Notes under the pieces: generated by a model
The model's input: the letters and a program-made list of their open reading frames with translations, nothing else
Told to the model about the DNA's origin: nothing
Database searches by the model: none
Part shown: piece after piece, positions 1 through 35,330 of the stretch
Layout: each line of letters opens with the position of its first letter
Position numbering within the stretch: position 1 is the stretch's first letter
Position numbers and translations under genes: made by a program
DNA from: a virus
Taxonomy: Duplodnaviria > Heunggongvirae > Uroviricota > Caudoviricetes
Virus record (IMG/VR): IMGVR_UViG_2724679238_000015
Coordinates: 1 to 35,486 of that record
Reading direction: 5' to 3' (one strand)
Length of the DNA: 35,486 nucleotides

Positions 1-1002
1 TTACCCTCTATTGTCAAAAGGGTTCAATTCAACTGCAGCCTCTAAATGACCTGGAGCAAAATGCGCATAACGCATAGTCATTTTTATATCGCTATGCCCC
101 AGTATTTTTTGCAACACAAGAATATTTCCTCCCCGCATCATAAAATGACTGGCAAACGTGTGACGTAGCACATGAGTTAATTGCCCATCAGGAAGCTCGA
201 TCTTCGCTCTCTTAATTGCAGCGTCAAAAGCCTCATAACATGGTGAAAATAACGCTCCTCGTTTTTTAGGAAGCATAGCCTGCAATTGAGGTGAAATCGG
301 TACAGTGCGGTTCTTCTTTCCTTTAGTTTTAACAAATGTGATTCGACCGGGCAGCACTTGAGATTGCTTTAATCCTTCAGCTTCACTCCACCGAGCACCA
401 GTCGCAAGCCCAATACGGACAACAACCCCCAAATCTTTATTCCGTGACTCATCACACGCAATCAGAAGGCGTTCAATCTCATCTACATACAGAAACGCCA
501 ATTCCTTTTCTTCCTCACGAAACTTGCGAATGCCAGTCAGGGGGTTTTCACCAGACCACTCCCCAAGGCGCTTCAGTTCGGCAAAAACAGCATGTAGATA
601 TGACTGCTCGCGATTAACGGTTGCTTCACTAAGTTTTTTCTTCCCCTTGGGATTCCATTCTCCTGATAACCTCCTTTCCCGATAAGTAGCAAACATATTT
701 TTGTCAAACTGAGAAGCAAATGGATCTCCCAGCCTAGAACAAATAGACTCAAGTTTGACTTTGCGCTCTGCACCAGAGGACAAGGTTTTACCGTACATCT
801 CAAACCAACGAGCAACCAACTCAGAAAGACGAGGACCAGAACCATCTTGAAACTCGTCTCCAACTCTACTATTCATTAAACGGCGCTCATAAGAGAGCGC
901 CTCACTTTTTGTCGCAAACTGTTTACGAATACGTTTTCCCGATGCCCCGTAAGGATAACATTCGCAAAGCCATTTACCTGATGGAATCTTACGAACCGAC
1001 AT
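1..1002 (-). CDS. int: tyrosine integrase, phage 186/P2 family
   Basis: 333 aa. N-terminus MSVRKIPSGKW...GKRIRKQFATKSEA and C-terminus LTHVLRHTFASHFMMRGGNILVLQKILGHSDIKMTMRYAHFAP closely match my memory of phage 186 Int (catalytic R..H..R..Y region). Its stop codon is the first 3 bases of the window. Confidence 0.9.
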   Translation of the reverse strand: MSVRKIPSGKWLCECYPYGASGKRIRKQFATKSEALSYERRLMNSRVGDEFQDGSGPRLSELVARWFEMYGKTLSSGAERKVKLESICSRLGDPFASQFDKNMFATYRERRLSGEWNPKGKKKLSEATVNREQSYLHAVFAELKRLGEWSGENPLTGIRKFREEEKELAFLYVDEIERLLIACDESRNKDLGVVVRIGLATGARWSEAEGLKQSQVLPGRITFVKTKGKKNRTVPISPQLQAMLPKKRGALFSPCYEAFDAAIKRAKIELPDGQLTHVLRHTFASHFMMRGGNILVLQKILGHSDIKMTMRYAHFAPGHLEAAVELNPFDNRG

Positions 1003-5026: not shown

Positions 5027-7822
5027 GTGGCAACGGAGTACATCAGAAACTGGCAACAACCACGCCATGCAGTCGGTCGCGAGGGAACGGGGGAGCCTGT
5101 CCGCCCCTCCCTTCTTTCTTCCTGGCTGGATGCCTACCGGGCAGAGAACGAGCGCCGCCAGGAAATGGCTGATGCGGCGTTCTCCGCCACGCCGCTGGGC
5201 AATCTGATTAATAAAAACCTGGACGCACAGGAAAAACAGGACAAAGCCATCACACTGGCAAGAGAAGCCAGAAAACAGGCGTGTGGCGCGGTGGATGAAG
5301 CAATTGCCGCACTGCGCCTGCTGCCGTCCTATCTGCGAGATCCGCTTATCCGCCATCTCTCTTTCCTGCGCAAAAAACAGGAATCCGATCGTCAGAAAGG
5401 CAAAAAGAGCTGGCAGGCTGAACGCTACGCGCGCGGAACCCTGCGCAAAATATTCGAACGTCTGGAGCGCACCGACAGACGCTGGCTGACACCGGGTTAT
5501 CGCTCCCTTGCCGGGCGTGAACGCCTGGATGATTTACTTTACCTGCCGCAGCTCAACAAACACCAGATACAGACGCTGGCCGTCATGACAGCGGCGATGT
5601 TCAGCAGCACCTTCGAAAAACTCTGCGATGACTTTGGCGCGACCGATGGCGAGCTGACCATGGATATAACGCTGAAGGCGTATCAGATGCTGGCCCGCAT
5701 GGCGTTACATCTGCACACAGTGCCGCCGCATTATGACGCACTGACAACAGACAAAGACCGGAAGAACGAACCGGACACGGAGCTGCTGCCGGGTGCAATC
5801 CTCCGCCTGACCTGTGCGGACTGGTGGAAACGCAAATTGTGGCTTTTACGTTGCGAATGGAGAGAGGAACAACTCCGCGCTGCCTGTCTGGTTTCCAGAA
5901 AAACATCCCCCTATCTGAGTCAGGACGCATTAAGTGAATTTCGCGCACAGCGCGAGAAAACACGCGATTTCCTGAAAAGTTTCATGCTGGAAAATGAAGA
6001 CGGGTTCACGATTGATCTTGAGACGGTGTATTACGCGGGAGTAAGTAACCCGGTCCACCGTAAGGCAGAAATGATGGCCACCATGAAGGGGCTGGAACTT
6101 CTGGCCGAAGCCCGTGGCGACAAAGCGGTATTTCTGACCGTTACCTGCCCGTCAAAATATCACGCAACAACGGAGAACGGTCATCCGAATCCCAAATGGA
6201 ACGGCGCCACCATGCGCGATTCCAGCGATTACCTGGTTAACACTTTTTTTAAGGCAGTCCGCAAAAAACTGAACCGCGACGACCTGCGCTGGTATGGTAT
6301 CCGCACGGTGGAGCCACACCATGACGGCACCGTGCACTGGCACATGATGGTCTTTGCACATCCTGAAGAAATCGACAGCATCGTGGACATCACCCGTGAT
6401 ATTGCCATTCGCGAAGACCGCCACGAGCTGGGCAATGACATAACTCCGCGCTTTAAGGCAGAGTACGTCGACGGTTCGAAAGGTACGCCGACCAGCTACA
6501 TCGCCACCTACATCGGAAAGAACCTGGACAGCCGCGCCGTGGATGGCATTGACCCGAAAACAGGCAAGCCACGCGTTGATCACGAAACCGGAAAATCAAT
6601 GACCGAGAGCGTGGAACGCGCCATCGGCTGGGCGCGCCTTCACCGCGTCCGCCAGTTCCAGTTCTTTGGTATCCCCTCCCGTCAGGTATGGCGTGAACTC
6701 CGCCGCCTTGCCAGTCAGATGGCCCGCACCCCGGAAGGTCCACAACGTCTGGAAAATGACGCAATGGATGCGGTACTCGCTGCCGCTGATGCCGGGTGTT
6801 TTGCCACCTACATTGAGAAACAGGGGGGCGTACTTGTTCCACGCAAGGATTACCTGATTCGCACCGCCTACGACCTCGCAGAAGAGCTGAACGATTACGG
6901 CGAGCAAAGCGTACAGATTTACGGGATCTGGTCGCCACAAATCGGGGAATCTTCCCGCGTGTGCACGCACCCGGATAACTGGAAGCTGGTAAGACGTAAA
7001 CCGGAAGCGGAAGACAGCGCCCGCGAAAATGGTTTTGACCTTCAGGGCGGCCCTGCCGCCCCTTGGACTCGTGGCAATAACTGTCCCCGTGTACAGGAAA
7101 CAGGCAACAGCGGGACAGAACTGTCGGAAGAGCAACCAACACCGTGGCCGCAGATCCCTGACGGCGTTGATGTGGATGAATGGATGCGCTCACTGAAACG
7201 GCACGAACGTCGGGCGCTGATGCGTTCGCTTCGTAACAAACAGGCAAAAAACAACAGTGATGAAATGCAGAGCTGGACACAGAGCCGCAAACAGCCGCGG
7301 TCTTTGCCTGATAACCACGAGTTACTCGCTAAAGAATGGCGGGAGTCTGCCGAATCTCTCGGCCTGCATATCGGTGAACAACAGATGCTGCGCCTGTTAC
7401 GGGGCGGCAGTCTGTACGTTGACGGCAGCATCATTGCACCGCAGGGATTTGAAATTGTACGCAAACCGGATACCCGCCCGGACAGCCGAATCACGCAGCT
7501 CTGGCAGCGCCTGAGCCGTAATCACGGCGTAAGCAGCACGGAGATCCGTCATAACCCGATCGCCAGCTATCTGGAACAGCTGGGGGCATCAGACCCCGAA
7601 GCCGCCGTACGCCTGGCATCCACACTTCAGCAGGACCAGAACACCATGAAAACACCCGTTACCGTGCTTTCTGACATGCTGCGTGCCATCCGTGACGCAG
7701 AGCACGCACAGAGAATCAGTGAAACCACTGAACGCGCCCGCCGCAAAGCAGACCTGCTGCGGTGGCCTGACCAGCGGAAACAAAAAACAGACAGAAACGG
7801 GATTCACAAATCCCGTAAATGA
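5027..7822 (+). CDS. A: replication initiation protein, P2 gpA-like rolling-circle endonuclease
   Basis: 931 aa, GTG start. Contains the conserved metal-binding block VEPHHDGTVHWHMMVFAH and YIATYIGKN tyrosine region of the P2 A family. The C-terminal ~250 aa is a low-complexity R/Q/E-rich extension. Confidence 0.85.
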   Translation: MATEYIRNWQQPRHAVGREGTGEPVRPSLLSSWLDAYRAENERRQEMADAAFSATPLGNLINKNLDAQEKQDKAITLAREARKQACGAVDEAIAALRLLPSYLRDPLIRHLSFLRKKQESDRQKGKKSWQAERYARGTLRKIFERLERTDRRWLTPGYRSLAGRERLDDLLYLPQLNKHQIQTLAVMTAAMFSSTFEKLCDDFGATDGELTMDITLKAYQMLARMALHLHTVPPHYDALTTDKDRKNEPDTELLPGAILRLTCADWWKRKLWLLRCEWREEQLRAACLVSRKTSPYLSQDALSEFRAQREKTRDFLKSFMLENEDGFTIDLETVYYAGVSNPVHRKAEMMATMKGLELLAEARGDKAVFLTVTCPSKYHATTENGHPNPKWNGATMRDSSDYLVNTFFKAVRKKLNRDDLRWYGIRTVEPHHDGTVHWHMMVFAHPEEIDSIVDITRDIAIREDRHELGNDITPRFKAEYVDGSKGTPTSYIATYIGKNLDSRAVDGIDPKTGKPRVDHETGKSMTESVERAIGWARLHRVRQFQFFGIPSRQVWRELRRLASQMARTPEGPQRLENDAMDAVLAAADAGCFATYIEKQGGVLVPRKDYLIRTAYDLAEELNDYGEQSVQIYGIWSPQIGESSRVCTHPDNWKLVRRKPEAEDSARENGFDLQGGPAAPWTRGNNCPRVQETGNSGTELSEEQPTPWPQIPDGVDVDEWMRSLKRHERRALMRSLRNKQAKNNSDEMQSWTQSRKQPRSLPDNHELLAKEWRESAESLGLHIGEQQMLRLLRGGSLYVDGSIIAPQGFEIVRKPDTRPDSRITQLWQRLSRNHGVSSTEIRHNPIASYLEQLGASDPEAAVRLASTLQQDQNTMKTPVTVLSDMLRAIRDAEHAQRISETTERARRKADLLRWPDQRKQKTDRNGIHKSRK

Positions 7823-7888
7823 GCAAAAAACGCGCCGCGATATATGAAACGCGCACAAAACAGGCAAAAGCGGGATTTCAGAATCCCG
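7798..7888. promoter_or_regulatory. two 18-bp palindromes CGGGATT-N4-AATCCCG (7798..7815 and 7871..7888) flanking the parM-like promoter; candidate parC centromere/operator
   Basis: Both copies have perfect 7-bp arms and are followed by TAAA. Centres are 73 bp apart, about 7 helical turns. The second overlaps a plausible -35/-10 (TTCAGA at 7877..7882, then ATTAAT about 17 bp downstream). Confidence 0.4.
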
Positions 7889-7923
7889 TAAACGATTAAT
7901 TAATCAACATAAGGAAAATCGAC

Positions 7924-8883
7924 ATGAAAATTTGCATCGACGACGGCTCCACCAACATCAAGCTGGCATGGACTGAGAACGGCGAACGCCGCAACGCCAT
8001 CAGCCCGAACAGCTTCAAGTCGGAATGGTCTGCGCCGTTCGGTGGCACGCAGCCCGCGAACTACATGCTTGATGGCGTGCGCTATGGTTTTGATCCGGTC
8101 AGCGATCGCTTTGTCCAGACGACCGACACGCAATACCAGTACAGCGATGTGAATGTCATTGCCATTCATCACGCGCTGGTCAAATCAGGTATCACACCAC
8201 AGGAAGTGGACGTGGTTGTCACTCTGCCACTGAGCGAGTATTTCGATACAAACGCACAGCCGGACATGGCCAACATCAACCGCAAAAAAGCGAATGTCCT
8301 GCGCCCTGTGGAGTACCAGAACGGTGAAGCATTCACTATCCGCAACGTGCGGGTTATGCCTGAATCCATTCCGGCTGGCTTTAAGGCACTGGCTGACATG
8401 AGTCCGTTTGAATCCCTGCTGATTGTGGATTTAGGCGGAACAACGCTGGATGTGGCAAAGGTTCAGGGGCAACTGGCAGGCATCAGCCAGGTGTTTTGCG
8501 ATCCACACGTAGGCGTTTCCCTGATGGCTGATGCCGTGCTGTCGGTGCTGGCCACTAACGGTATGCGTACCAGTCACCACATCGCCAATACCATTATTGA
8601 GCACCGTCACGATGAAGCCTGGCTACGCCAGCACATTCACAATGACGCGCATTACAACAGCCTGATAGCGGTTATTCGTGAAAAGGAGGAGACACTGAAA
8701 CAACGCGTGATCCGCGCACTCGCGGGCTTTTCGGGTTACGGGCGGGTGCTGGTTGTCGGTGGAGGAGCGGAGATTGTGGCACCCGCAGTCCGTGAAGTCT
8801 ATGGAGTCAATGCGAATTTCATCACAGACGGGGTGCCACAGTTTGCTCTGGTTAACGGTCTGTACGCTATGGATAAGGAGTAA
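7924..8883 (+). CDS. parM: ParM/StbA-family actin-like segregation ATPase
   Basis: 319 aa. MKICIDDGSTNIKL..ISPNSFK..YSDVNVIAIHHALVKSGITPQEVDVVVTLPLSEY matches plasmid R1 ParM as I recall it (MLVFIDDGSTNIKLQW...ISPNSFK...QYSDVNVVAVHHALLTSG). AAGGA RBS. Confidence 0.8.
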   Translation: MKICIDDGSTNIKLAWTENGERRNAISPNSFKSEWSAPFGGTQPANYMLDGVRYGFDPVSDRFVQTTDTQYQYSDVNVIAIHHALVKSGITPQEVDVVVTLPLSEYFDTNAQPDMANINRKKANVLRPVEYQNGEAFTIRNVRVMPESIPAGFKALADMSPFESLLIVDLGGTTLDVAKVQGQLAGISQVFCDPHVGVSLMADAVLSVLATNGMRTSHHIANTIIEHRHDEAWLRQHIHNDAHYNSLIAVIREKEETLKQRVIRALAGFSGYGRVLVVGGGAEIVAPAVREVYGVNANFITDGVPQFALVNGLYAMDKE

Positions 8884-8889
8884 CCCTCC

Positions 8890-9201
8890 ATGGCGACATT
8901 AACCAGAAGAATAAGTTTCTATCTGAAGCCAGCCGCCGTCAAGAACGAAGGCAAAGCATGCGCCTGGCTGGACAGCCTTACACCAGAAGCCCGCAAAAGC
9001 GGCCAACGCGTGGCTTTTCTGCCCGGGCTGGCACTTCTGAAAATGAATCCGGCAGAGGCTTACCGACTGGCTGCATGGGCTGATGATGAGGCGTTATCAG
9101 TGACACAAACCAGGGCAGAACGCCACATGTTACAGCCAGCGCCCACCGCACAGATAACCAGTCAGCTAGCCGGAAATATCCGGGCGTTATTTCCCGAATA
9201 A
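8890..9201 (+). CDS. parR: ParR-like centromere-binding protein
   Basis: 103 aa, AAGGAG RBS, directly after parM. RISFYLKP, WLDSLTPEARKSGQRVAFLPGLAL and NIRALFPE resemble R1 ParR (IAFKLNP, TLDSIPQGERSRLNRAALTAGLAL, LRSLFPKE). Confidence 0.65.
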   Translation: MATLTRRISFYLKPAAVKNEGKACAWLDSLTPEARKSGQRVAFLPGLALLKMNPAEAYRLAAWADDEALSVTQTRAERHMLQPAPTAQITSQLAGNIRALFPE

Positions 9202-9264
9202 CACAACATCAGGGCGCATCCGCCCTGATGACTTTAATCCGGGAACATAAACAAGAGGGACACA

Positions 9265-9606
9265 ATGCAACACATTGACAGAGAAAAAGCGCAGCGACTG
9301 ATTGAGCGGATGGAAGCGCTGGCGAAAGAAGAAAATGTCAACATCCAAAAAATAGCAGAATGTGGCCAGATAGTTCTTCGTCGTGAAAAAGACATCAAGC
9401 AACTGATGTCTGGCGAAACCAGCAAAACACGGATTCCAGGCGAGAAAACGATTTATTGTAGCTTCTGCAATAAATCCCAGTACGAAGTCACAAAGGTGAT
9501 TGCCGGACCGTCTGTTTACATCTGCAATGAGTGCGTGGATTTGTGCAATGAAATTATCAGGAGAGAAGCGACTGACCATGAAGAAGCGCGGAGATGCAAC
9601 GATTAA
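9265..9606 (+). CDS. small protein with a C-terminal ClpX-type C4 zinc-finger domain
   Basis: 113 aa. [38 protein letters not shown] is near-identical in pattern to the ClpX N-terminal zinc-binding domain ([34 protein letters not shown]). Preceded by a charged, probably helical N-terminal half; no AAA+ domain. Confidence 0.7.
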
Positions 9607-9674
9607 GTCGGGTAATGATATTGAGCAGGCGACTCACTGGATGCCGATGCCAGAAGCGTTTCAGGAGGTTAACC

Positions 9675-9950
9675 GTGGCTAACCTGCAACTTGCCGTCAA
9701 AGGTGAATACTTCGATGCCATGATTCGCGGAGAGAAAACAGAAGAGTATCGCCTGGTTAATTCATACTGGTCTCGCCGTATATTGGATAAGAGCTATGAT
9801 CGATTGATTATTACTAAGGGGTATCCGAAACGCGACGATTTAAGCCGCAGAATTGATGTCCCATATGGGGGATATGAGATCAAGGTGATAACACATCCAC
9901 ATTTTGGACCAGAGCCAGTAAAAGTATTTGCTATTAAGTTGACTCAATGA
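9675..9950 (+). CDS. ASCH (PUA-like) domain protein
   Basis: ORF-track frame 9594..9950; GTG at 9675 has an AGGAGG RBS 6 nt upstream. VANLQLAVKGEYFDAMIRGEKTEEYR fits the N-terminal beta-strand/GxKTxExR signature of ASCH domains. Confidence 0.5.
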   Translation: MANLQLAVKGEYFDAMIRGEKTEEYRLVNSYWSRRILDKSYDRLIITKGYPKRDDLSRRIDVPYGGYEIKVITHPHFGPEPVKVFAIKLTQ

Positions 9951-10210
9951 CCGATACCACTAAGAAAAAGACGTTAAATAACATACATGAAAAGTATGAT
10001 TATTTTACGGATACCGCTTGCTTGCTGACATCTGAAGAACAAAAGATAGCCCAACTTTTAGGCGATGCATGGAACCTGTATTTAACATTGCCAGTTGAGC
10101 ATCCAATGGGTAGAGATGAATTTTGCCGGGCAATTCATCATTGCCAAAATATGGTGTTGGCACGCCCTGCCATCAGGGCGCTGGCCAGTAAGGGGCAAGG
10201 CTATAAATAG
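9947..10210 (+). CDS. hypothetical protein, last gene of the accessory island
   Basis: 87-aa ORF; start overlaps the ASCH stop (ATGA); followed by a terminator. Confidence 0.5.
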   Translation: MTDTTKKKTLNNIHEKYDYFTDTACLLTSEEQKIAQLLGDAWNLYLTLPVEHPMGRDEFCRAIHHCQNMVLARPAIRALASKGQGYK

Positions 10211-10218
10211 ATGAGCAA

Positions 10219-10245
10219 AACGCCCTCCTCCAGGGCGTTTATTTC
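10219..10245 (+). terminator. rho-independent terminator closing the accessory island
   Basis: Stem AACGCCCT / AGGGCGTT with CCTCC loop, followed by TATTTC. Confidence 0.5.
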
Positions 10246-10644
10246 AATGCACAATAGTGCACAAATTTGCACAATTTTTTTGAACAACTTTTTACCCTTC
10301 CGGCCCGCGTGGCGGCTGGATCCGTCAAGGATCCGTGCATGCACAAAAAAACGCGTTTTTTCTGCGCGCAGGTGACGGGGGAACAGCCCGCGTTTCAGGG
10401 GGTAAATAGCATTCCCTGAGCGATGTCGCAGCGACACAACAGAATGGCTGTATTTCTCACGCTGAGCGTGAAAAAGACGTAAGGGTTTTTGATTTGATGG
10501 GTTGAAAGGTAAGGCCGTCAAAATCGCACTGAGGCGGCGAGAACATACAGTCAACGCGGTGGGATTGCGTAAGAGTCTGACCGTCGATGGTGGCGATAAA
10601 CTGGAAGGCGTCGTGAAATTATCTGATTGATACGGAGCTGGAGA

Positions 10645-10672
10645 GTCGGGGCATAAATTTTTTATGCCCCGG
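10645..10672 (-). terminator. hairpin downstream of portal gene Q, probable terminator of the P-Q operon
   Basis: CGGGGCAT / ATGCCCCG stem around an A/T-rich loop, about 30 bp beyond the Q stop. Confidence 0.4.
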
Positions 10673-10697
10673 CGAAGCAGCAGACAAGCGAAGCGCG

Positions 10698-11744
10698 TCA
10701 GGCTGTGGGCTGGGTGTCTAACAGTGCGTAAGGGTTAAAGCGGATCACCTCTTCGCCCAGCCAGTCATTGATGTGCTTCATGGCCTCCATGACGGGCATC
10801 AGCTCGTTAATTGCGTAAACCCGCGCGGCCTTCTCCACATCACCAAACGCACTTTTTTCACCCGGCATCGCCCCCATCAGTTGCGGCGGAACGCGGTGCG
10901 CAGCCAGCACATCATCACGGGATGCCGCCTTAACATTCATGAACTCATCCTTTGCGGTGATCTGCTGGAACGGCAAAATTTGCACCCCCTCTTTGCCCCC
11001 GTTGGGCGCATGAATGAGCACGTTTTTAAACGCACCACCACCACGTGCCCCCTGTAGCGTTTCTTTCAGGGAGTCCATGCTTTCGCGGTTTACCTGCGCT
11101 GCACCGATGTAGATGATGCACCCGGCGTGGGATCCGTTGTCGTAATACAGTTTTCTGAACATGTCCGCCGAATGAGACAGGCTGGCCGAGAGTAATGCGC
11201 CGAGATATTCCGGCATGCCGTAGATTTCCTGGTTAATGTCAGGATTCATCAGGTGGCACACTTTGCCAGGGCGAAACTGAAACGCGTCCTTACCATCCTG
11301 CACATACCACCATGATTCAAGATCGCTTCCGCGTCGCATGTATTTCGCCAGGGCGTGCCGTAATTTAAGCGGTTCGCCGAGCATATTGCTTCGAAGCTCA
11401 AGGAATGCGTTACCGAACACAAACCAGTCCAGCGCCAGCGCCGAGAAATCCTGCCGGGAAAGCAGCGGGTGCGGAATATAGCAGCCGAGCAATACATTGC
11501 GCTTAAAGTAAAGCGCAGACTGATGCCAGGACGTTTGCCGGGCAGCTCTTGCCAGACCGTACCAGTCCACCGGGGTTTCATACCATCGCCCGTTATCGGC
11601 ACAGTACATATTGTCCAGTAAATCATGCCCGGTCAGGCGGTAAGGGCCGTCAAATGTGAATGCACTGAGCGATGATTCTTTCCTGAGCGCATCAGCGAGA
11701 TCAATGCGTGAACTCATGCGCACTTTTTTATTTTTTCTGCTCAT
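10698..11744 (-). CDS. Q: capsid portal protein (P2 gpQ homolog)
   Basis: 348 aa; size, position downstream of the terminase ATPase gene and overall similarity to P2 Q. ATG overlaps the P stop (ATGA). Confidence 0.85.
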   Translation of the reverse strand: MSRKNKKVRMSSRIDLADALRKESSLSAFTFDGPYRLTGHDLLDNMYCADNGRWYETPVDWYGLARAARQTSWHQSALYFKRNVLLGCYIPHPLLSRQDFSALALDWFVFGNAFLELRSNMLGEPLKLRHALAKYMRRGSDLESWWYVQDGKDAFQFRPGKVCHLMNPDINQEIYGMPEYLGALLSASLSHSADMFRKLYYDNGSHAGCIIYIGAAQVNRESMDSLKETLQGARGGGAFKNVLIHAPNGGKEGVQILPFQQITAKDEFMNVKAASRDDVLAAHRVPPQLMGAMPGEKSAFGDVEKAARVYAINELMPVMEAMKHINDWLGEEVIRFNPYALLDTQPTA

Positions 11745-13495
11745 CAGAACTCCATAACCGTGAAACGCTCGTTTTCTCCTTCGCCGCCAATCGGTTCGTT
11801 AATGACAGCAAGCATGGTTGCCCACGCAAGGTCGCCGTGGCTGATCCCCCTCGCGCGGTCCGTTTCGTAAGTGATAAAGCCGCCCGGTGTTTTCACCTTA
11901 CGCACGGCGTTAAAGGCCGCGACCAGCTCCCGTTCGGCACGATCGTATTCCCAGCGCCCGGCACGCATTATTTGCAGCATTTTCAGTACCAGCGACCGTT
12001 TTGATGACAGCGTGAAGGTGTACGGAATAGCAGCAGGGAAAAACCGTTTCACTATCTGATAAACAGCCTCCCCGTTCCCGCCCGTCACATCAATGCCGAT
12101 GTGTTCCACGTTGTAGCGATACGTAAACTCTTCAATGACTCTGGCCTGTTCTTCAAACTCCAGCCCCTGAACGCGTCGCGTCTCCACCGTTCGAAAACGG
12201 CCACCAGGAACAGCCGGAGGAACCACCACGGACACAGCGCCGCTGTCGCCGTTGCCACTGCTGCCGTTTGCGTCATACCCAATCCATACCGGGCGATTCC
12301 CCATCGGGCGGGGAGCAAAAGGTTTCCAGTCTTTCCAGTCGTCGTATCCGTCAACGCCGCAGCCAATCAGGATATTCAGGTTAAATGCCGATTCCCCTTC
12401 GCGGACAAACTCACACATATAGAGATTGAGGAACTCGTCTTCGGTGTTTTCATCACGAATTTCATCAATATCGGTGTGTTTCCAGCCGTGATTAACCACA
12501 TCTTCCAGCGTGACAATTTGCCGCCACGTCCGGTCAGGGCAGATAAGCCCGTTATGCAGCGTTTTCCAGTCAACAGAAAAACGCTGGCGTTTATGCGTGG
12601 CCTTTTTCTCATTCCAGCGGTCGCCGTTCCAGTAGGCGTATGCCTCGTGCGTTTCGGTGGATGGCGTGGAGAAGTAGGTGCGCCGCAGTCCGCTGAGGGT
12701 TGCCATAGCGCCAGCCACCTTGCGCAGTTCAGCAAAGCGACTGACCCAGAAAAATTCATCAAAATAAAAATTGCCCGTATAGGACTGTGCCGACGCAGCA
12801 GAAGTGCCGAGAAAATGCAGCTCTGCGCCGTTGGAGAGGATGATTTTATCGCCCCCTTTCAGCTCCACATCAACTTCAGCCGCGGCCTTCTGAATAATGC
12901 TTTTAAACTGGAACGCCTGACGACGCGACGCAGACAAAAAAATCTGGTTACGCTGGTAAGGTTGCGCCACATCGTCACGCAGCGCCATCAGCAGAGCTTC
13001 CTGTGCAAAATACCAGGTCGCCCCAATCTGTCGGGATTTCAGGATCATCCTGTTACGTATCCCGGCTTCCCTGCAAAGGGTCAGGGAGTCAAACCAGCCC
13101 CGCTGATGCCACTCCAGCCTGCTGATGATTTTTTCCCGCAGTGCGGCAATCTGTTCCGGCGTGAAATGATTTTTAAGTTTTTTCGCCCGGCCTTTCTTTC
13201 CTGTGGCCGTCGCATCCGGCTGGGCATCATGCAGTTTTTTAAGCTGCCGGGTCAGCAGGTCTATTTCCTTGAAGTCACCACCTGTTTTATTCTGTTTTTC
13301 AGTGAGCTGGATGAGGCGCGCATCGATGGACTGCGTGACACGCTGCACGGGTGGCGTTTCATCCCACTGGTCGCGTTTTTTCCACGCATAAATCGTGTTC
13401 GGGTTTATTCCCATCAGACGTGATATTTCTGCGGGCGGATAACCCTGCCAGTAAAGTTGTCGCGCACGCTGGCGCACAAAAGCGTCCTGAATCAT
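11744..13495 (-). CDS. P: terminase large (ATPase) subunit (P2 gpP homolog)
   Basis: 583 aa; N-terminal HTH-like MIQDAFVRQRARQLYWQGYPPAEISRLMGINPNTIYAWKKRDQW and a nuclease-like C-terminal half, as in P2 P. Confidence 0.85.
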   Translation of the reverse strand: MIQDAFVRQRARQLYWQGYPPAEISRLMGINPNTIYAWKKRDQWDETPPVQRVTQSIDARLIQLTEKQNKTGGDFKEIDLLTRQLKKLHDAQPDATATGKKGRAKKLKNHFTPEQIAALREKIISRLEWHQRGWFDSLTLCREAGIRNRMILKSRQIGATWYFAQEALLMALRDDVAQPYQRNQIFLSASRRQAFQFKSIIQKAAAEVDVELKGGDKIILSNGAELHFLGTSAASAQSYTGNFYFDEFFWVSRFAELRKVAGAMATLSGLRRTYFSTPSTETHEAYAYWNGDRWNEKKATHKRQRFSVDWKTLHNGLICPDRTWRQIVTLEDVVNHGWKHTDIDEIRDENTEDEFLNLYMCEFVREGESAFNLNILIGCGVDGYDDWKDWKPFAPRPMGNRPVWIGYDANGSSGNGDSGAVSVVVPPAVPGGRFRTVETRRVQGLEFEEQARVIEEFTYRYNVEHIGIDVTGGNGEAVYQIVKRFFPAAIPYTFTLSSKRSLVLKMLQIMRAGRWEYDRAERELVAAFNAVRKVKTPGGFITYETDRARGISHGDLAWATMLAVINEPIGGEGENERFTVMEF

Positions 13496-33828: not shown

Positions 33829-34089
33829 ATGTTCCGTTGTCCGCTTTGTGGCGCATCTGCCCGTATCCGCACCAGTCGTTCGGAAAATGATTCAGATACC
33901 GTACGGAAAAAATATTACCAGTGTAACAACCTGGAATGCGGCGTATGCTTCTCAACACTGGAGGCTTTCCATAAATTCACATCGAAACACGCCCCCGGCG
34001 TTCACTCTTCAGAGGGCATCCCGTGGAATGAGCTACCAGCTTCACACAGGGGAAACAACCAGATGAGTTTGCCCTTACCTCAGAATTAA
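33829..34089 (+). CDS. ogr: late gene transcription activator, zinc-finger Ogr/Delta family
   Basis: MFRCPLCGASARIRTSR...YYQCNNLECGVCFSTLEAF matches P2 Ogr (MFHCPLCQHAAHARTSR...YHQCQNVNCSATF) with the four-Cys zinc finger. Confidence 0.85.
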   Translation: MFRCPLCGASARIRTSRSENDSDTVRKKYYQCNNLECGVCFSTLEAFHKFTSKHAPGVHSSEGIPWNELPASHRGNNQMSLPLPQN

Positions 34090-34149: not shown

Positions 34150-34362
34150 ATGGCTGGAGGGAATACCCGAAGGCCAGATGTGGAAAGGCCCCGGAAAACA
34201 TTTCTGTTTAACCGAGGCCCTGACCATCTAACCTTAGCAAGTGATAGGTTAGCGCCTCCCCAAAAAAGGAGCAAGCGCTATGTCGCAAAAATCGCTTATG
34301 GCCATCACGTTCTGCGTGACGGTAATCCTCATCATCTGGATGCTGCACGGTTCGCTGTGTGA
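34150..34362 (+). CDS. mok-like overlapping reading frame of the hok locus (tentative)
   Basis: 70-aa ORF in another frame overlapping the hok start, as mok does in hok/sok loci. Called by position only. Confidence 0.3.
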   Translation: MAGGNTRRPDVERPRKTFLFNRGPDHLTLASDRLAPPQKRSKRYVAKIAYGHHVLRDGNPHHLDAARFAV

Positions 34363-34420
34363 AATACGGATGAGCTTCTGGGGAGCGGAGTTTGCGGCGT
34401 TCTTACAGTGTAAGCAGTAA
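34280..34420 (+). CDS. hok: Hok/Gef-family small membrane toxin (type I toxin-antitoxin)
   Basis: 46 aa: MSQKSLMAITFCVTVILIIWMLHGSLCEIRMSFWGAEFAAFLQCKQ. N-terminal TM followed by the SLCEIR...E.AAF signature of the Hok/Gef family. Followed by a GC-rich fold-back hairpin. Confidence 0.65.
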   Translation: MSQKSLMAITFCVTVILIIWMLHGSLCEIRMSFWGAEFAAFLQCKQ

Positions 34421-34611: not shown

Positions 34612-34893
34612 TTACTCAGCATTCTCCTGCTTCCATTGCCGGATCATTTCATCCGTAACATCACTCTCATAACATACCACGTCATACCCTCCAGTACGGC
34701 TATATGCACTGCGTCTACCACATCTACTACCATTCCTTGCATGATTATAAGGACACGCACAATTGCCTGGATACGATTCAATGGATTCTTTAATTATTTC
34801 TTTCTTGATCTGAGCATCAGACTTTCCTGTTGCTGCATACCCACTAAAAGATACCAAACAAAAACAGATTGCCATTAATAAACCACATCGCAT
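34612..34893 (-). CDS. small secreted cysteine-containing protein of unknown function
   Basis: ORF-track frame extends to 35007; the internal Met at 34893 gives a signal peptide (MRCGLLMAICFCLVSFSGYA) and an ~73-aa mature part with four Cys. Confidence 0.45.
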   Translation of the reverse strand: MRCGLLMAICFCLVSFSGYAATGKSDAQIKKEIIKESIESYPGNCACPYNHARNGSRCGRRSAYSRTGGYDVVCYESDVTDEMIRQWKQENAE

Positions 34894-35140
34894 ACCGATA
34901 CACTCTATTACTAACCAATCATAACCCACATCATAAAATCGAGATGTGGAGTACAACACCTTTAACAAGAAGGTGTCATAACGATAATATGCCGTGCAAT
35001 TCATCAAAAAAAAGATCTATATCAAAGAGATAGAGCTCTTATCAGTGCTGCAGACATCGGCATTCGAGGCAGCAGAAAAACAGTAAATCTGACGAATTTG
35101 CCTTTTCTCAGGATGTTATCAGATTAAAAAAGACAGATTA

Positions 35141-35330
35141 GCGCAGGTACCTTTTGGTGGATGGCAGGAGGAAAAATGAAGTCGAGTGGAAAAATCCCAG
35201 AAAAATTTTTGTTTAACCGAGGTCCTAGTTCACTATGCGAAATACGGAGGAGCTGCAGGAGAATTCGGCTTCATCCTTAGAGTTTAAACAGCACGTGCAC
35301 TACTATTGTTTCTGCATATCGCCACACCAT
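35141..35330 (+). pseudogene. truncated hok-locus remnant: leader plus 3' end of hok, lacking the hok start and TM region
   Basis: 35150..35225 aligns to the leader at 34150..34225 (shared TGTTTAACCGAGG.CCT); the following sequence aligns to the hok 3' end (GAAATACGGA.GAGCT). About 140 bp with the start codon and TM is missing. Confidence 0.4.

Follow-up and report, generated by a model that had tools for sequence, protein, structure and literature searches.

A Predicted R1-Type Partition Cassette in the Backbone of P88-Like Prophages and the Variable Slot That Follows It

Introduction

The hotspot between the replication gene gpA and the portal gene gpQ is occupied by a putative plasmid partitioning system in around a quarter of the P2-like phages, and one of the catalogued arrangements is "StbA + Plasmid_stab_B + zf-C4_ClpX + hypothetical..." (Table S5A in Rousset et al., 2022; PMC9122126). 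Here we describe this locus in a 35,486-nucleotide stretch of viral DNA (IMG/VR record IMGVR_UViG_2724679238_000015), which is referred to as the window throughout. The window is an integrated P88-like prophage (Peduoviridae, genus Xuanwuvirus; P2 family), and the interval in question holds parM and parR followed by genes for a ClpX zinc-finger (ZF) protein, an ASCH protein and a hypothetical protein. A first-pass annotation had read 7795-10245 as a single accessory island at the tin/old hotspot with no recognisable defence genes, and had suggested an undescribed exclusion system or a hotspot carrying maintenance functions.

In P2 the gene order is A on the plus strand, orf91 (plus strand, DUF3850/ASCH clan) overlapping the end of A, and then tin and old on the minus strand with their own mapped leftward promoter. 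Plasmid R1 carries both the parMRC and the hok/sok stability loci. An actin-like ATPase with a DNA-binding adaptor is also found in the integrated Corynebacterium prophage CGP3, where the genes of the AlpA/AlpC/alpS system are switched on early and the excised circle depends on them to replicate efficiently; the adaptor AlpA binds DNA upstream of the operon that encodes it (Donovan et al., 2015; PMC4446434).

We find that the interval consists of two unrelated layers, a conserved backbone (7795-9201) and a hotspot (9202-10247). With a probability of roughly 75%, the ParMR proteins would serve the episomal phage genome, the cargo genes behind parR would be early accessory genes, and the locus would hold no recognisable defence system.

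Results and Discussion

The Partition Genes Are Backbone and the Variable Slot Starts at the parR Stop

The following features make up the conserved part of the region.

5027-7822, plus strand: gpA, replication endonuclease/nickase of P88 type, 931 aa, left flank (Pfam Phage_GPA 1.3e-129; phrog_91 "nicking at origin")
7781-7895, no strand: candidate parC / parMR operator, with a 42-nt direct repeat at 7781-7822 and 7854-7895 (repeat finder)
7924-8883, plus strand: parM, actin-like partition ATPase, 319 aa (Pfam StbA_N 7e-82, ParM_N 3e-66)
8890-9201, plus strand: parR, adaptor, 103 aa, the final backbone gene (Plasmid_stab_B 3e-23; phrog_2515 8.6e-54)
10248-10697, no strand: conserved non-coding region, predicted from its position to be cos-proximal
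10698-11744, minus strand: portal protein gpQ, right flank (Pfam Phage_portal 4.5e-18)

Pairwise alignments with IMG/VR relatives showed homology to the window to be continuous through gpA, parM and parR and to stop exactly at the parR stop (9200/9201). It restarted at 10248/10249, just past a terminator-like hairpin. These breakpoints place the variable slot at 9202-10247. The locus sample comprised 80 IMG/VR relatives retrieved via ParR. The parM gene was found 8-10 nt upstream of parR in all 80 loci (tblastn matches), with gpA upstream in 75 of 75 and the portal gene downstream in 77 of 77 loci whose contigs extend that far. Between the stop codons of parR and the portal gene there were 528 to 4173 bp, and about 47 different arrangements of open reading frames (ORFs) were found in 77 loci. 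The non-coding region from 10248 to 10697, which corresponds in position to the P2 cos, was 94-99% identical in all siblings, including two that lack the cargo.

The same picture was obtained outside the locus sample. P88-type gpA (presence defined as at least 80% cover) was found in 1321 and the parC-parMR segment in 1278 of 5426 complete E. coli genomes. The resulting parMR prevalence of about 24% is in line with the published figure. All 14 P88-group phage records from tblastn carried parM. The two cargo-less IMG/VR siblings, L017 and L018, have an essentially empty slot and retain parMR; a deletion at 6310-6340 of these loci joins positions equivalent to 9217 and 10171 of the window. The deletion removed the ClpX-ZF gene, the ASCH gene and most of the last cargo gene (orf87), and the whole cargo is therefore dispensable. 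Because the genome-wide counts, the phage records and the empty-slot loci agree, the backbone status of parMR does not depend on how the loci were chosen. The endpoints of the L017/L018 deletion are short repeats (…CAGGGCGC / GCGCTGGCC…).

Phage P88 covers 79% of the region at 94% identity, and many E. coli prophages also match. A query of 7795-10700 was matched over at least 80% of its length in just 15 of the complete E. coli genomes.

The single accessory island of the first-pass annotation was thus drawn too wide, as content typical of the gpA-gpQ (tin/old) diversity hotspot is confined to 9202-10247. When gene content was compared across relatives the slot proved to vary while parMR was invariant. 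The window shares the locus, the Pfam pair and the accessory zf-C4_ClpX and hypothetical genes with the partition system of Rousset et al. (2022). That study counts parMR as hotspot content, whereas we find it to be invariant backbone of the P88 lineage, with the hotspot following parR. In P88-like phages the hotspot is best drawn from the parR stop and not from gpA, since partition genes are otherwise miscounted as cargo. The observation was right in content and wrong in framing: a hotspot region carrying maintenance functions does hold a bona fide R1-type parM-parR pair, but this is not new (PMC9122126), and the arrangement is ordinary and already catalogued. As posed, the finding matters little: the cassette is of a textbook kind, has been catalogued before and is common, about one E. 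coli genome in four having it. It is noteworthy that a lineage of integrating phages keeps an actin-type segregation machine and a hok/gef gene under strong purifying selection.

The Partition Cassette Resembles That of Plasmid R1

The segment 7795-9201 is a predicted R1-type (type II, actin-like) partition cassette belonging to the backbone of P88-like/Xuanwuvirus phages. ParM aligned to R1 ParM (PDB 1mwk) over residues 2-316 with an E-value of 1.8e-92, and the phosphate-binding and catalytic motifs IDDGSTNIK, MPESIPAG and DLGGTTLD matched their R1 counterparts exactly or almost exactly. ParM is under strong purifying selection, stronger than gpA, with a median ratio of nonsynonymous to synonymous substitution rates (dN/dS) of 0.07 (62 pairs) compared to 0.16 for gpA; the ratio for ParR was 0.36.

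The cassette is similar to R1 ParMRC (the parA locus) in its end-to-end ParM match, the order parM-parR, a ParR of the Plasmid_stab_B family and a repeat element upstream. It differs from R1 ParMRC in being located in an integrating P2-family phage directly after gpA, in having two 20-bp palindromes and no detectable iteron array, and in its ParR. No match to ParR was found in PDB, and a search of the 72,556 plasmids of PLSDB found ParR in P88-like insertions only, with no homologue detected on ordinary plasmids. The kinship to R1 ParR is therefore seen at the level of Pfam family membership only. In the window, parR starts 7 nt past the parM stop.

Each copy of the 42-nt repeat upstream of parM contains a perfect 8-4-8 palindrome (ACGGGATTcacaAATCCCGT at 7797-7816 and gCGGGATTtcagAATCCCGT at 7870-7889), and the two are 73 bp apart. 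The first repeat copy overlaps the end of gpA and encodes the last gpA residues. No other exact match to CGGGATTN4AATCCCG exists in the 35 kb, and the two palindromes were kept in 9 of 9 relatives examined. A scan of 7770-7925 for an R1-like iteron array, by periodicity and information content, gave nothing better than shuffled sequences. Both 42-nt copies also score as terminator-like hairpins on the minus strand. A sigma-70 promoter scan of the plus strand from 7600 to 10750 found none, and hand-picked -35/-10 candidates overlapping the second palindrome were too weak to be reported as features.

Two ParR alleles were found. They are 52% identical and share residues 5-18 and a C-terminal NIxxLFPE tail, and prophages with the second allele have identical palindromes upstream. 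Because the diverged alleles share both ends and the palindromes are the same, the data fit a ParR whose N-terminus reads the palindromes (residues 5-18 being the presumed DNA-reading strand) and whose C-terminal tail touches ParM. The second allele is found at 2094-2408 of locus L007 and at 4594-4908 of L097, corresponding to 8890-9201 of the window. When the alleles are exchanged, the final ~100 nt of parM go with them; homology at the nucleotide level ends at position 1150 of a query of 1407.

ParMR May Serve the Episomal Phage Genome

In the mechanism that we propose, ParR would bind the two palindromes just upstream of parM, and ParM filaments would then push or position circular phage genomes. 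ParMR would in this way organise and segregate a transient episomal genome, either after infection and before integration, after excision, or during early replication. A transient role is suggested because the cassette lies at the distal end of the early operon, directly after gpA, in an element that is almost always integrated. The rightward early operon of the prophage runs up to gpA at its end. The AlpA/AlpC pair of CGP3 offers a functional model by analogy, as it also combines an actin-like ATPase and a DNA-binding adaptor in an integrated prophage; no homology is demonstrated beyond the actin fold, and host phylum and phage type differ. Occasional plasmid-like carriage would be possible as a secondary role, helped by hok/gef. 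P88-like isolates make the role of ParMR in an integrating phage directly testable.

The hok/gef gene is a second plasmid-type stability element of the prophage, far from the gpA-gpQ interval.

34280-34420, plus strand: ORF for a hok/gef-family toxin (Pfam HOK_GEF PF01848, 30.3 bits, cut-off 22)

A mok-like ORF of 70 aa (34150-34362) overlaps it, and hok/gef is also annotated in P88 and in NZ_CP148288. When the whole window was compared to Rfam no family reached its gathering score, hence neither a Sok antisense RNA nor any other RNA was found.

The Slot Cargo Is a Patchwork of Small Early-Type Genes

The cargo of the slot consists of three small rightward genes, coding for a mimic of the ClpX N-domain, a putative ASCH-fold protein and the orf87 product. 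The features of the slot are:

9207-9230, no strand: GC-rich perfect 10-bp hairpin at the 5' edge of the ClpX-ZF cassette, T-rich on the minus side only
9265-9606, plus strand: mimic of the ClpX N-domain (zinc-binding domain, ZBD), 113 aa (zf-C4_ClpX 9e-18)
9586-9682, plus strand: 3' remnant of a DUF551/EaA-type gene, last 16 codons (ending in …THWMPMPEAFQEVNRG and …HWMPMPEAFQEVNRG, each followed by a stop)
9675-9950, plus strand: putative ASCH-fold protein, 91 aa from a GTG at 9675 (mechanical ORF from 9594, 118 aa; phrog_625 2.7e-43)
9947-10210, plus strand: orf87, 87 aa, no domain
10217-10247, plus strand: intrinsic-terminator-like hairpin (AAACGCCCT-cctcc-AGGGCGTTT) with a T-rich tail, read from sequence

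This cargo reads as a recombination patchwork, in which a P88-type cassette appears to have been joined by illegitimate or homologous recombination to a lambdoid early-left fragment. The P88-type ClpX-ZF cassette spans 9202-9576. Homology to the P88 type ends at 9576, and the last ~10 codons of the ClpX-ZF gene are chimeric. In most siblings the cassette is followed by a partner gene of 104-112 aa (MNRKQKQ…), which is missing in the window. From 9586 to 9942 the window is 81.6% identical to the early-left region of Shiga toxin (Stx) phage 933W, namely the 3' end of L0065 and the ASCH gene L0064. The tail of the DUF551 remnant aligns with the intact DUF551 gene of strain TUM1880 (ending in …INWMPLPEPPKEVNRG and a stop), and the remnant would mark the joint with the lambdoid fragment. 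The stretch with the DUF551 remnant and the ASCH gene was matched in ~290 phage records, mostly Stx converting phages.

The true start of the ASCH gene is probably the GTG at 9675, as judged from RefSeq homologues and the PHROG match. The protein had no match in Pfam, and only 4 of 46 relatives had a marginal match to ASCH (PF04266; E 0.003-0.01). Its AlphaFold (AF2) model had a predicted local distance difference test score (pLDDT) of 92.8, and the top 13 matches of the model in a Foldseek search of PDB were all ASCH/PUA (3iuw, 2z0t, ZmASCH, YqfB), at weak scores (E 0.04-0.3, TM ~0.5). The predicted beta-barrel fold matches ASCH proteins such as E. coli YqfB, Zymomonas ZmASCH and PDB 3IUW first, while the protein is below the Pfam ASCH threshold and, at 91 aa, shorter than these. 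Homologues are named ASCH by NCBI and fall into 735 representative clusters at E ≤ 1e-3. In lambdoid Stx phages the ASCH gene stands by itself. Next to the ASCH gene, 933W L0063 (L014 4434-4745) has a C-x2-C…C-x2-C-V-D pattern with a sub-threshold match to zf-C4_ClpX (E 0.015); on this evidence, lambdoid phages too may have ASCH-like genes next to ClpX-finger-like ones.

No Pfam, PADLOC, NCBIfam or PDB match was found for orf87. Its homologues form 22 clusters only, all from Enterobacterales, and elsewhere orf87 is fused in frame to the N-terminus of the ClpX-ZF partner gene. Such fusions are seen in L035, L040, L087 and L089 (~6697-7106), where ORFs of 135 aa combine the 54 N-terminal residues of the partner gene product (MNRKQKQ…) with residues 10-87 of orf87. 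These in-frame fusions point to recurrent recombination inside the small cargo genes.

Both hairpins lie at edges of the slot. The one at 9207-9230 belongs to the cargo and not to the backbone, since homology with the other siblings ends at 9201, and it could stop leftward transcription from entering parMR. The hairpin at 10217-10247, after orf87, is the sole convincing terminator of the region and is the predicted end of the rightward early transcription unit as well as the right edge of the slot. The cargo would be read through from the early operon and would act in phage development, either in host takeover or as accessory functions.

The ClpX-ZF gene was present in 33 of the 80 loci, the ASCH gene in 3 and orf87 in 7, and the exact arrangement of the window was found in 3. 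In 30 of the 33 loci with ClpX-ZF neither ASCH nor orf87 was present.

Some annotations of these genes in the databases were discarded. The PHROG label "DNA ligase" for orf87 has no support from Pfam, NCBIfam or PDB, and the same holds for the widely used GenBank label "carboxylate-amine ligase" for the ClpX-ZF gene of P88; we regard both labels as annotation noise. The label "recombinase" for parR in P88 records was not supported by any search performed here.

A Phage-Borne Mimic of the ClpX N-Domain

The 113-aa ClpX-ZF protein consists of a helical hairpin (residues 6-48), a disordered linker and a C4 zinc domain (residues 62-101). The zinc domain is 78% identical to the ZBD of E. coli ClpX over 40 residues (ClpX residues 12-51), and the protein model superposes on PDB 2ds5 with a root-mean-square deviation (rmsd) of 0.8 A (Foldseek). 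The fold is the same as that of the ClpX ZBD (PDB 1OVX, 2DS5-2DS8); the domain retains the four zinc cysteines as well as the helix ECVDLCNxIIR at its C-terminus. Compared to ClpX, the domain is C-terminal, behind the helical hairpin, and there is no AAA+ module. Given its 113 aa, and since models of ClpX were matched at positions ~3-54 only, the protein is a domain mimic and not a ClpX.

The gene was located 66-70 nt past parR in the relatives that carry it. The full-length family is narrow, being found in Escherichia and Salmonella down to 42% identity. A second allele, 53% identical, occupies the same position after parR in the P88-like prophage NZ_CP080223. Homologues are also present amid early accessory genes on plasmids of 90-110 kb, one of which has P1-type icd and ref genes, and these plasmids look like phage-plasmids. 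The recurrence after parR, the two alleles and the phage-plasmid-like carriers hint at a link of ClpX-ZF with an episomal lifestyle. The dN/dS of ClpX-ZF was 0.33. A recent capture of E. coli clpX was rejected as origin of the gene: the ZBD DNA has no nucleotide-level similarity to host clpX, and a blastn search (word size 11) of the 5426 genomes missed clpX and matched phage and plasmid paralogues only.

Known ligands of the ClpX N-domain are SspB, UmuD', lambda O, MuA, FtsZ and the MqsA degron, and ClpX residues L12, L13 and H23 are required for recognition of the MqsA degron, H23 being also implicated in binding of the SspB tail (PMC8808172). In the window protein these pocket residues are replaced by T62, I63 and Y73, while some family members keep a histidine at the position of H23. 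A simple decoy for ligands of the MqsA-degron or SspB type is doubtful because of these replacements. ClpX-ZF may instead heterodimerise via the conserved helix, or bind a new ligand. We would only speculatively propose, and with low confidence, that it is a phage copy of the substrate- and adaptor-docking ClpX N-domain with an added hairpin, which may join or compete with ClpX N-domain dimers and so redirect or block ClpXP, for example to protect a replication, partition or antitoxin protein. We found no published description of such ClpX N-domain mimic proteins. The mimic is an unstudied candidate modulator of host proteolysis and the one fresh item of this analysis.

Slot Content of Siblings and of P2

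The defence check was made with PADLOC-DB hidden Markov models (HMMs; hmmscan, six proteins) and did not use the full system-calling logic. Nothing was found at E ≤ 1 except a chance-level match to HEC-01B (12.6 bits, E 0.021). The absence of recognisable defence genes reported in the first-pass annotation therefore holds at the HMM level. The gene content that it listed was likewise recovered in full, by Pfam for ParM, ParR and the ClpX zinc finger and by fold and NCBI naming for ASCH.

In siblings, the same slot was found to contain the defence genes AbiLi/AbiLii, IetA/IetS, an RmrA-like gene with a PIN-like protein, and PDC-M04A. Other siblings have a Fic/Doc-family gene beside a small upstream ORF resembling a Phd-type antitoxin, DUF4760 membrane proteins (by annotation), or forward-strand early-type genes, namely Ead/Ea22 and Mom-like genes, the latter from a sub-threshold Pfam match. 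The cargo of the window belongs to this forward-strand early-type class.

P2 shares with the window the slot and a small forward-strand gene of the ASCH clan, orf91, right after A. The resemblance of the orf91 product to the ASCH-like protein of the window is a weak N-terminal motif (pairwise E 6e-4, hhalign probability 50%). P2 has no parMR, and its reverse-strand genes tin and old have no equivalent in the window. By analogy, the window cargo would be the counterpart of orf91 and not of tin/old. Strand seems to be informative here: forward genes after gpA or parR resemble early accessory genes, while the proven defence genes of P2 are on the reverse strand with their own promoter. In a 2026 survey 19% of P2-like elements were without identifiable defence genes (PMC13586616). 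The window prophage is simply without a recognisable defence system at its main hotspot, as is about one in five P2-like elements.

Alternative Explanations

The preference of the first-pass annotation was for an undescribed anti-phage exclusion system, made up of the whole interval or of the 9202-10247 cargo. The locus lends itself to this, as the gpA-gpQ hotspot is enriched in defence systems (PMC9122126), siblings have AbiL, IetAS and RmrA-like genes in the same slot, and 6 of 8 loci of unknown function tested in P4-satellite hotspots proved protective (PMC13586616), so that a lack of HMM matches is no proof of a lack of defence. Folds of PUA/ASCH type are in addition known from modification-sensing nucleases, with MspJI appearing low in the list of fold matches to the ASCH protein, and the ASCH-clan gene orf91 adjoins tin in P2. 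However, there was no PADLOC match, and parMR is near-universal in the lineage and hence backbone rather than cargo. The five genes do not form one unit, as ClpX-ZF, ASCH and orf87 differ in their frequency among the loci and each also occurs independently elsewhere, the ASCH family being widespread in other prophages. The cargo genes (87-113 aa) are without a nuclease, NTPase, transmembrane or toxin domain. They all run in the direction of the early lytic operon, no promoter of their own was detected, and the cassette, with its gene remnant, has plainly been patched together by recombination. Since the genes do not travel as a unit and effector-type domains are absent, we consider a new exclusion system of several genes very unlikely; a single cargo gene could still have such a role. 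The cargo may alternatively encode counter-defence or host-takeover factors, with the ClpX mimic reprogramming ClpXP by heterodimerisation or ligand competition and thereby stabilising a phage or antitoxin substrate. The close likeness to the ZBD with its zinc cysteines and helix, the known ligands of the N-domain (PMC8808172), the two diverged alleles behind parR, the carriage among early accessory genes of phage-plasmid-like plasmids, the dN/dS of 0.33 and the forward-strand Mom-like and Ead/Ea22 genes of siblings all argue in this direction. Against it stand the replaced pocket residues and the lack of support in the literature, and the mimic is dispensable since it is absent from 47 of 80 siblings. 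We regard this function of the cargo as possible, though rather doubtful.

For the partition genes, the suggestion in Rousset et al. (2022) leads to another explanation, in which parMRC and hok/gef mainly ensure persistence as a stable low-copy plasmid prophage. ParM and ParR are close to the R1 plasmid system, ParM is strongly constrained, and the prophage has both kinds of stability locus that R1 has. Furthermore, NZ_CP148288.1 (L013), a circle of 34,461 bp that was submitted as an E. coli plasmid, was found to be a complete P88-like genome. On the other hand, the cassette was chromosomal at 1449 of 1451 places in the complete E. coli genomes (2 were on plasmids), and only 7 of the 72,556 PLSDB plasmids carried it. 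Five of these seven are large replicons of 228 kb to 1.4 Mb, and therefore represent integrated copies. The phage retains its integrase and adjoins a tRNA fragment in the window, and the lone circular record could be an excised replicating phage caught by the assembly. As judged from P2, rolling-circle replication of the gpA type is not known to yield a controlled plasmid copy number. Because of the chromosomal bias, stable plasmid lysogeny as the main purpose of the cassette is unlikely. Several points nevertheless weigh against a transient role of ParMR together with a cargo free of defence functions. NZ_CP148288.1 and hok/gef fit stable plasmid carriage as well as a transient role. There are only two candidate parC palindromes, compared to the multi-iteron array of R1 parC, and relatives are 97% similar and thus too alike for covariation; a single-protein ParM search of genome contigs gave three near-identical loci only and was useless for this purpose. 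We infer the centromere role of 7781-7895 from sequence, as we do the early-operon read-through and autoregulation by ParR, and the AlpAC analogy is functional and not homologous. The defensive loci of the P4 hotspots and the ASCH-clan gene accompanying tin/old in P2, mentioned above, weigh on the same side. Taken together, we retain ParMR acting on the episomal genome, with early accessory genes behind it, as the preferred explanation. The record NZ_CP148288.1 carries an integrase, parMR, hok/gef and a Com/DNA-methyltransferase pair.

Other Features of the Prophage

The remaining features of the window are:

1-1002, minus strand: integrase
11744-13495, minus strand: terminase, with late genes beyond
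33829-34089: Ogr-like activator

The far end of the window contains the 3' part of a tRNA gene, and no intact tRNA was found in the window by ARAGORN.

Between the integrase and a helix-turn-helix repressor-like gene (2051-2455) there is a low-GC stretch (0.35-0.44) at 1008-2455 on the minus strand. Encoded here are a DUF2511 protein (1008-1355) and, at 1385-2035, a protein of 216 aa that partially matches the flagellar regulator Flk. The P88 counterpart of this stretch has the C repressor only, and 1008-2455 may be a second, int-proximal cargo site. Another low-GC ORF, at 34612-35007 on the minus strand between hok and the tRNA fragment, had no family match. Neither the left-end ORFs in 1008-2455 nor this ORF gave a PADLOC match, and they were rejected as hidden defence genes. 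From an internal ATG, 34612-35007 encodes a Cys-rich protein of 93 aa with a signal/lipobox-like N-terminus (MRCGLLMAICFCLVSFSG…). A degenerate second hok/gef copy ("FLFNRGP…SLCEIR") is located at 35161-35280, near the attachment-site end.

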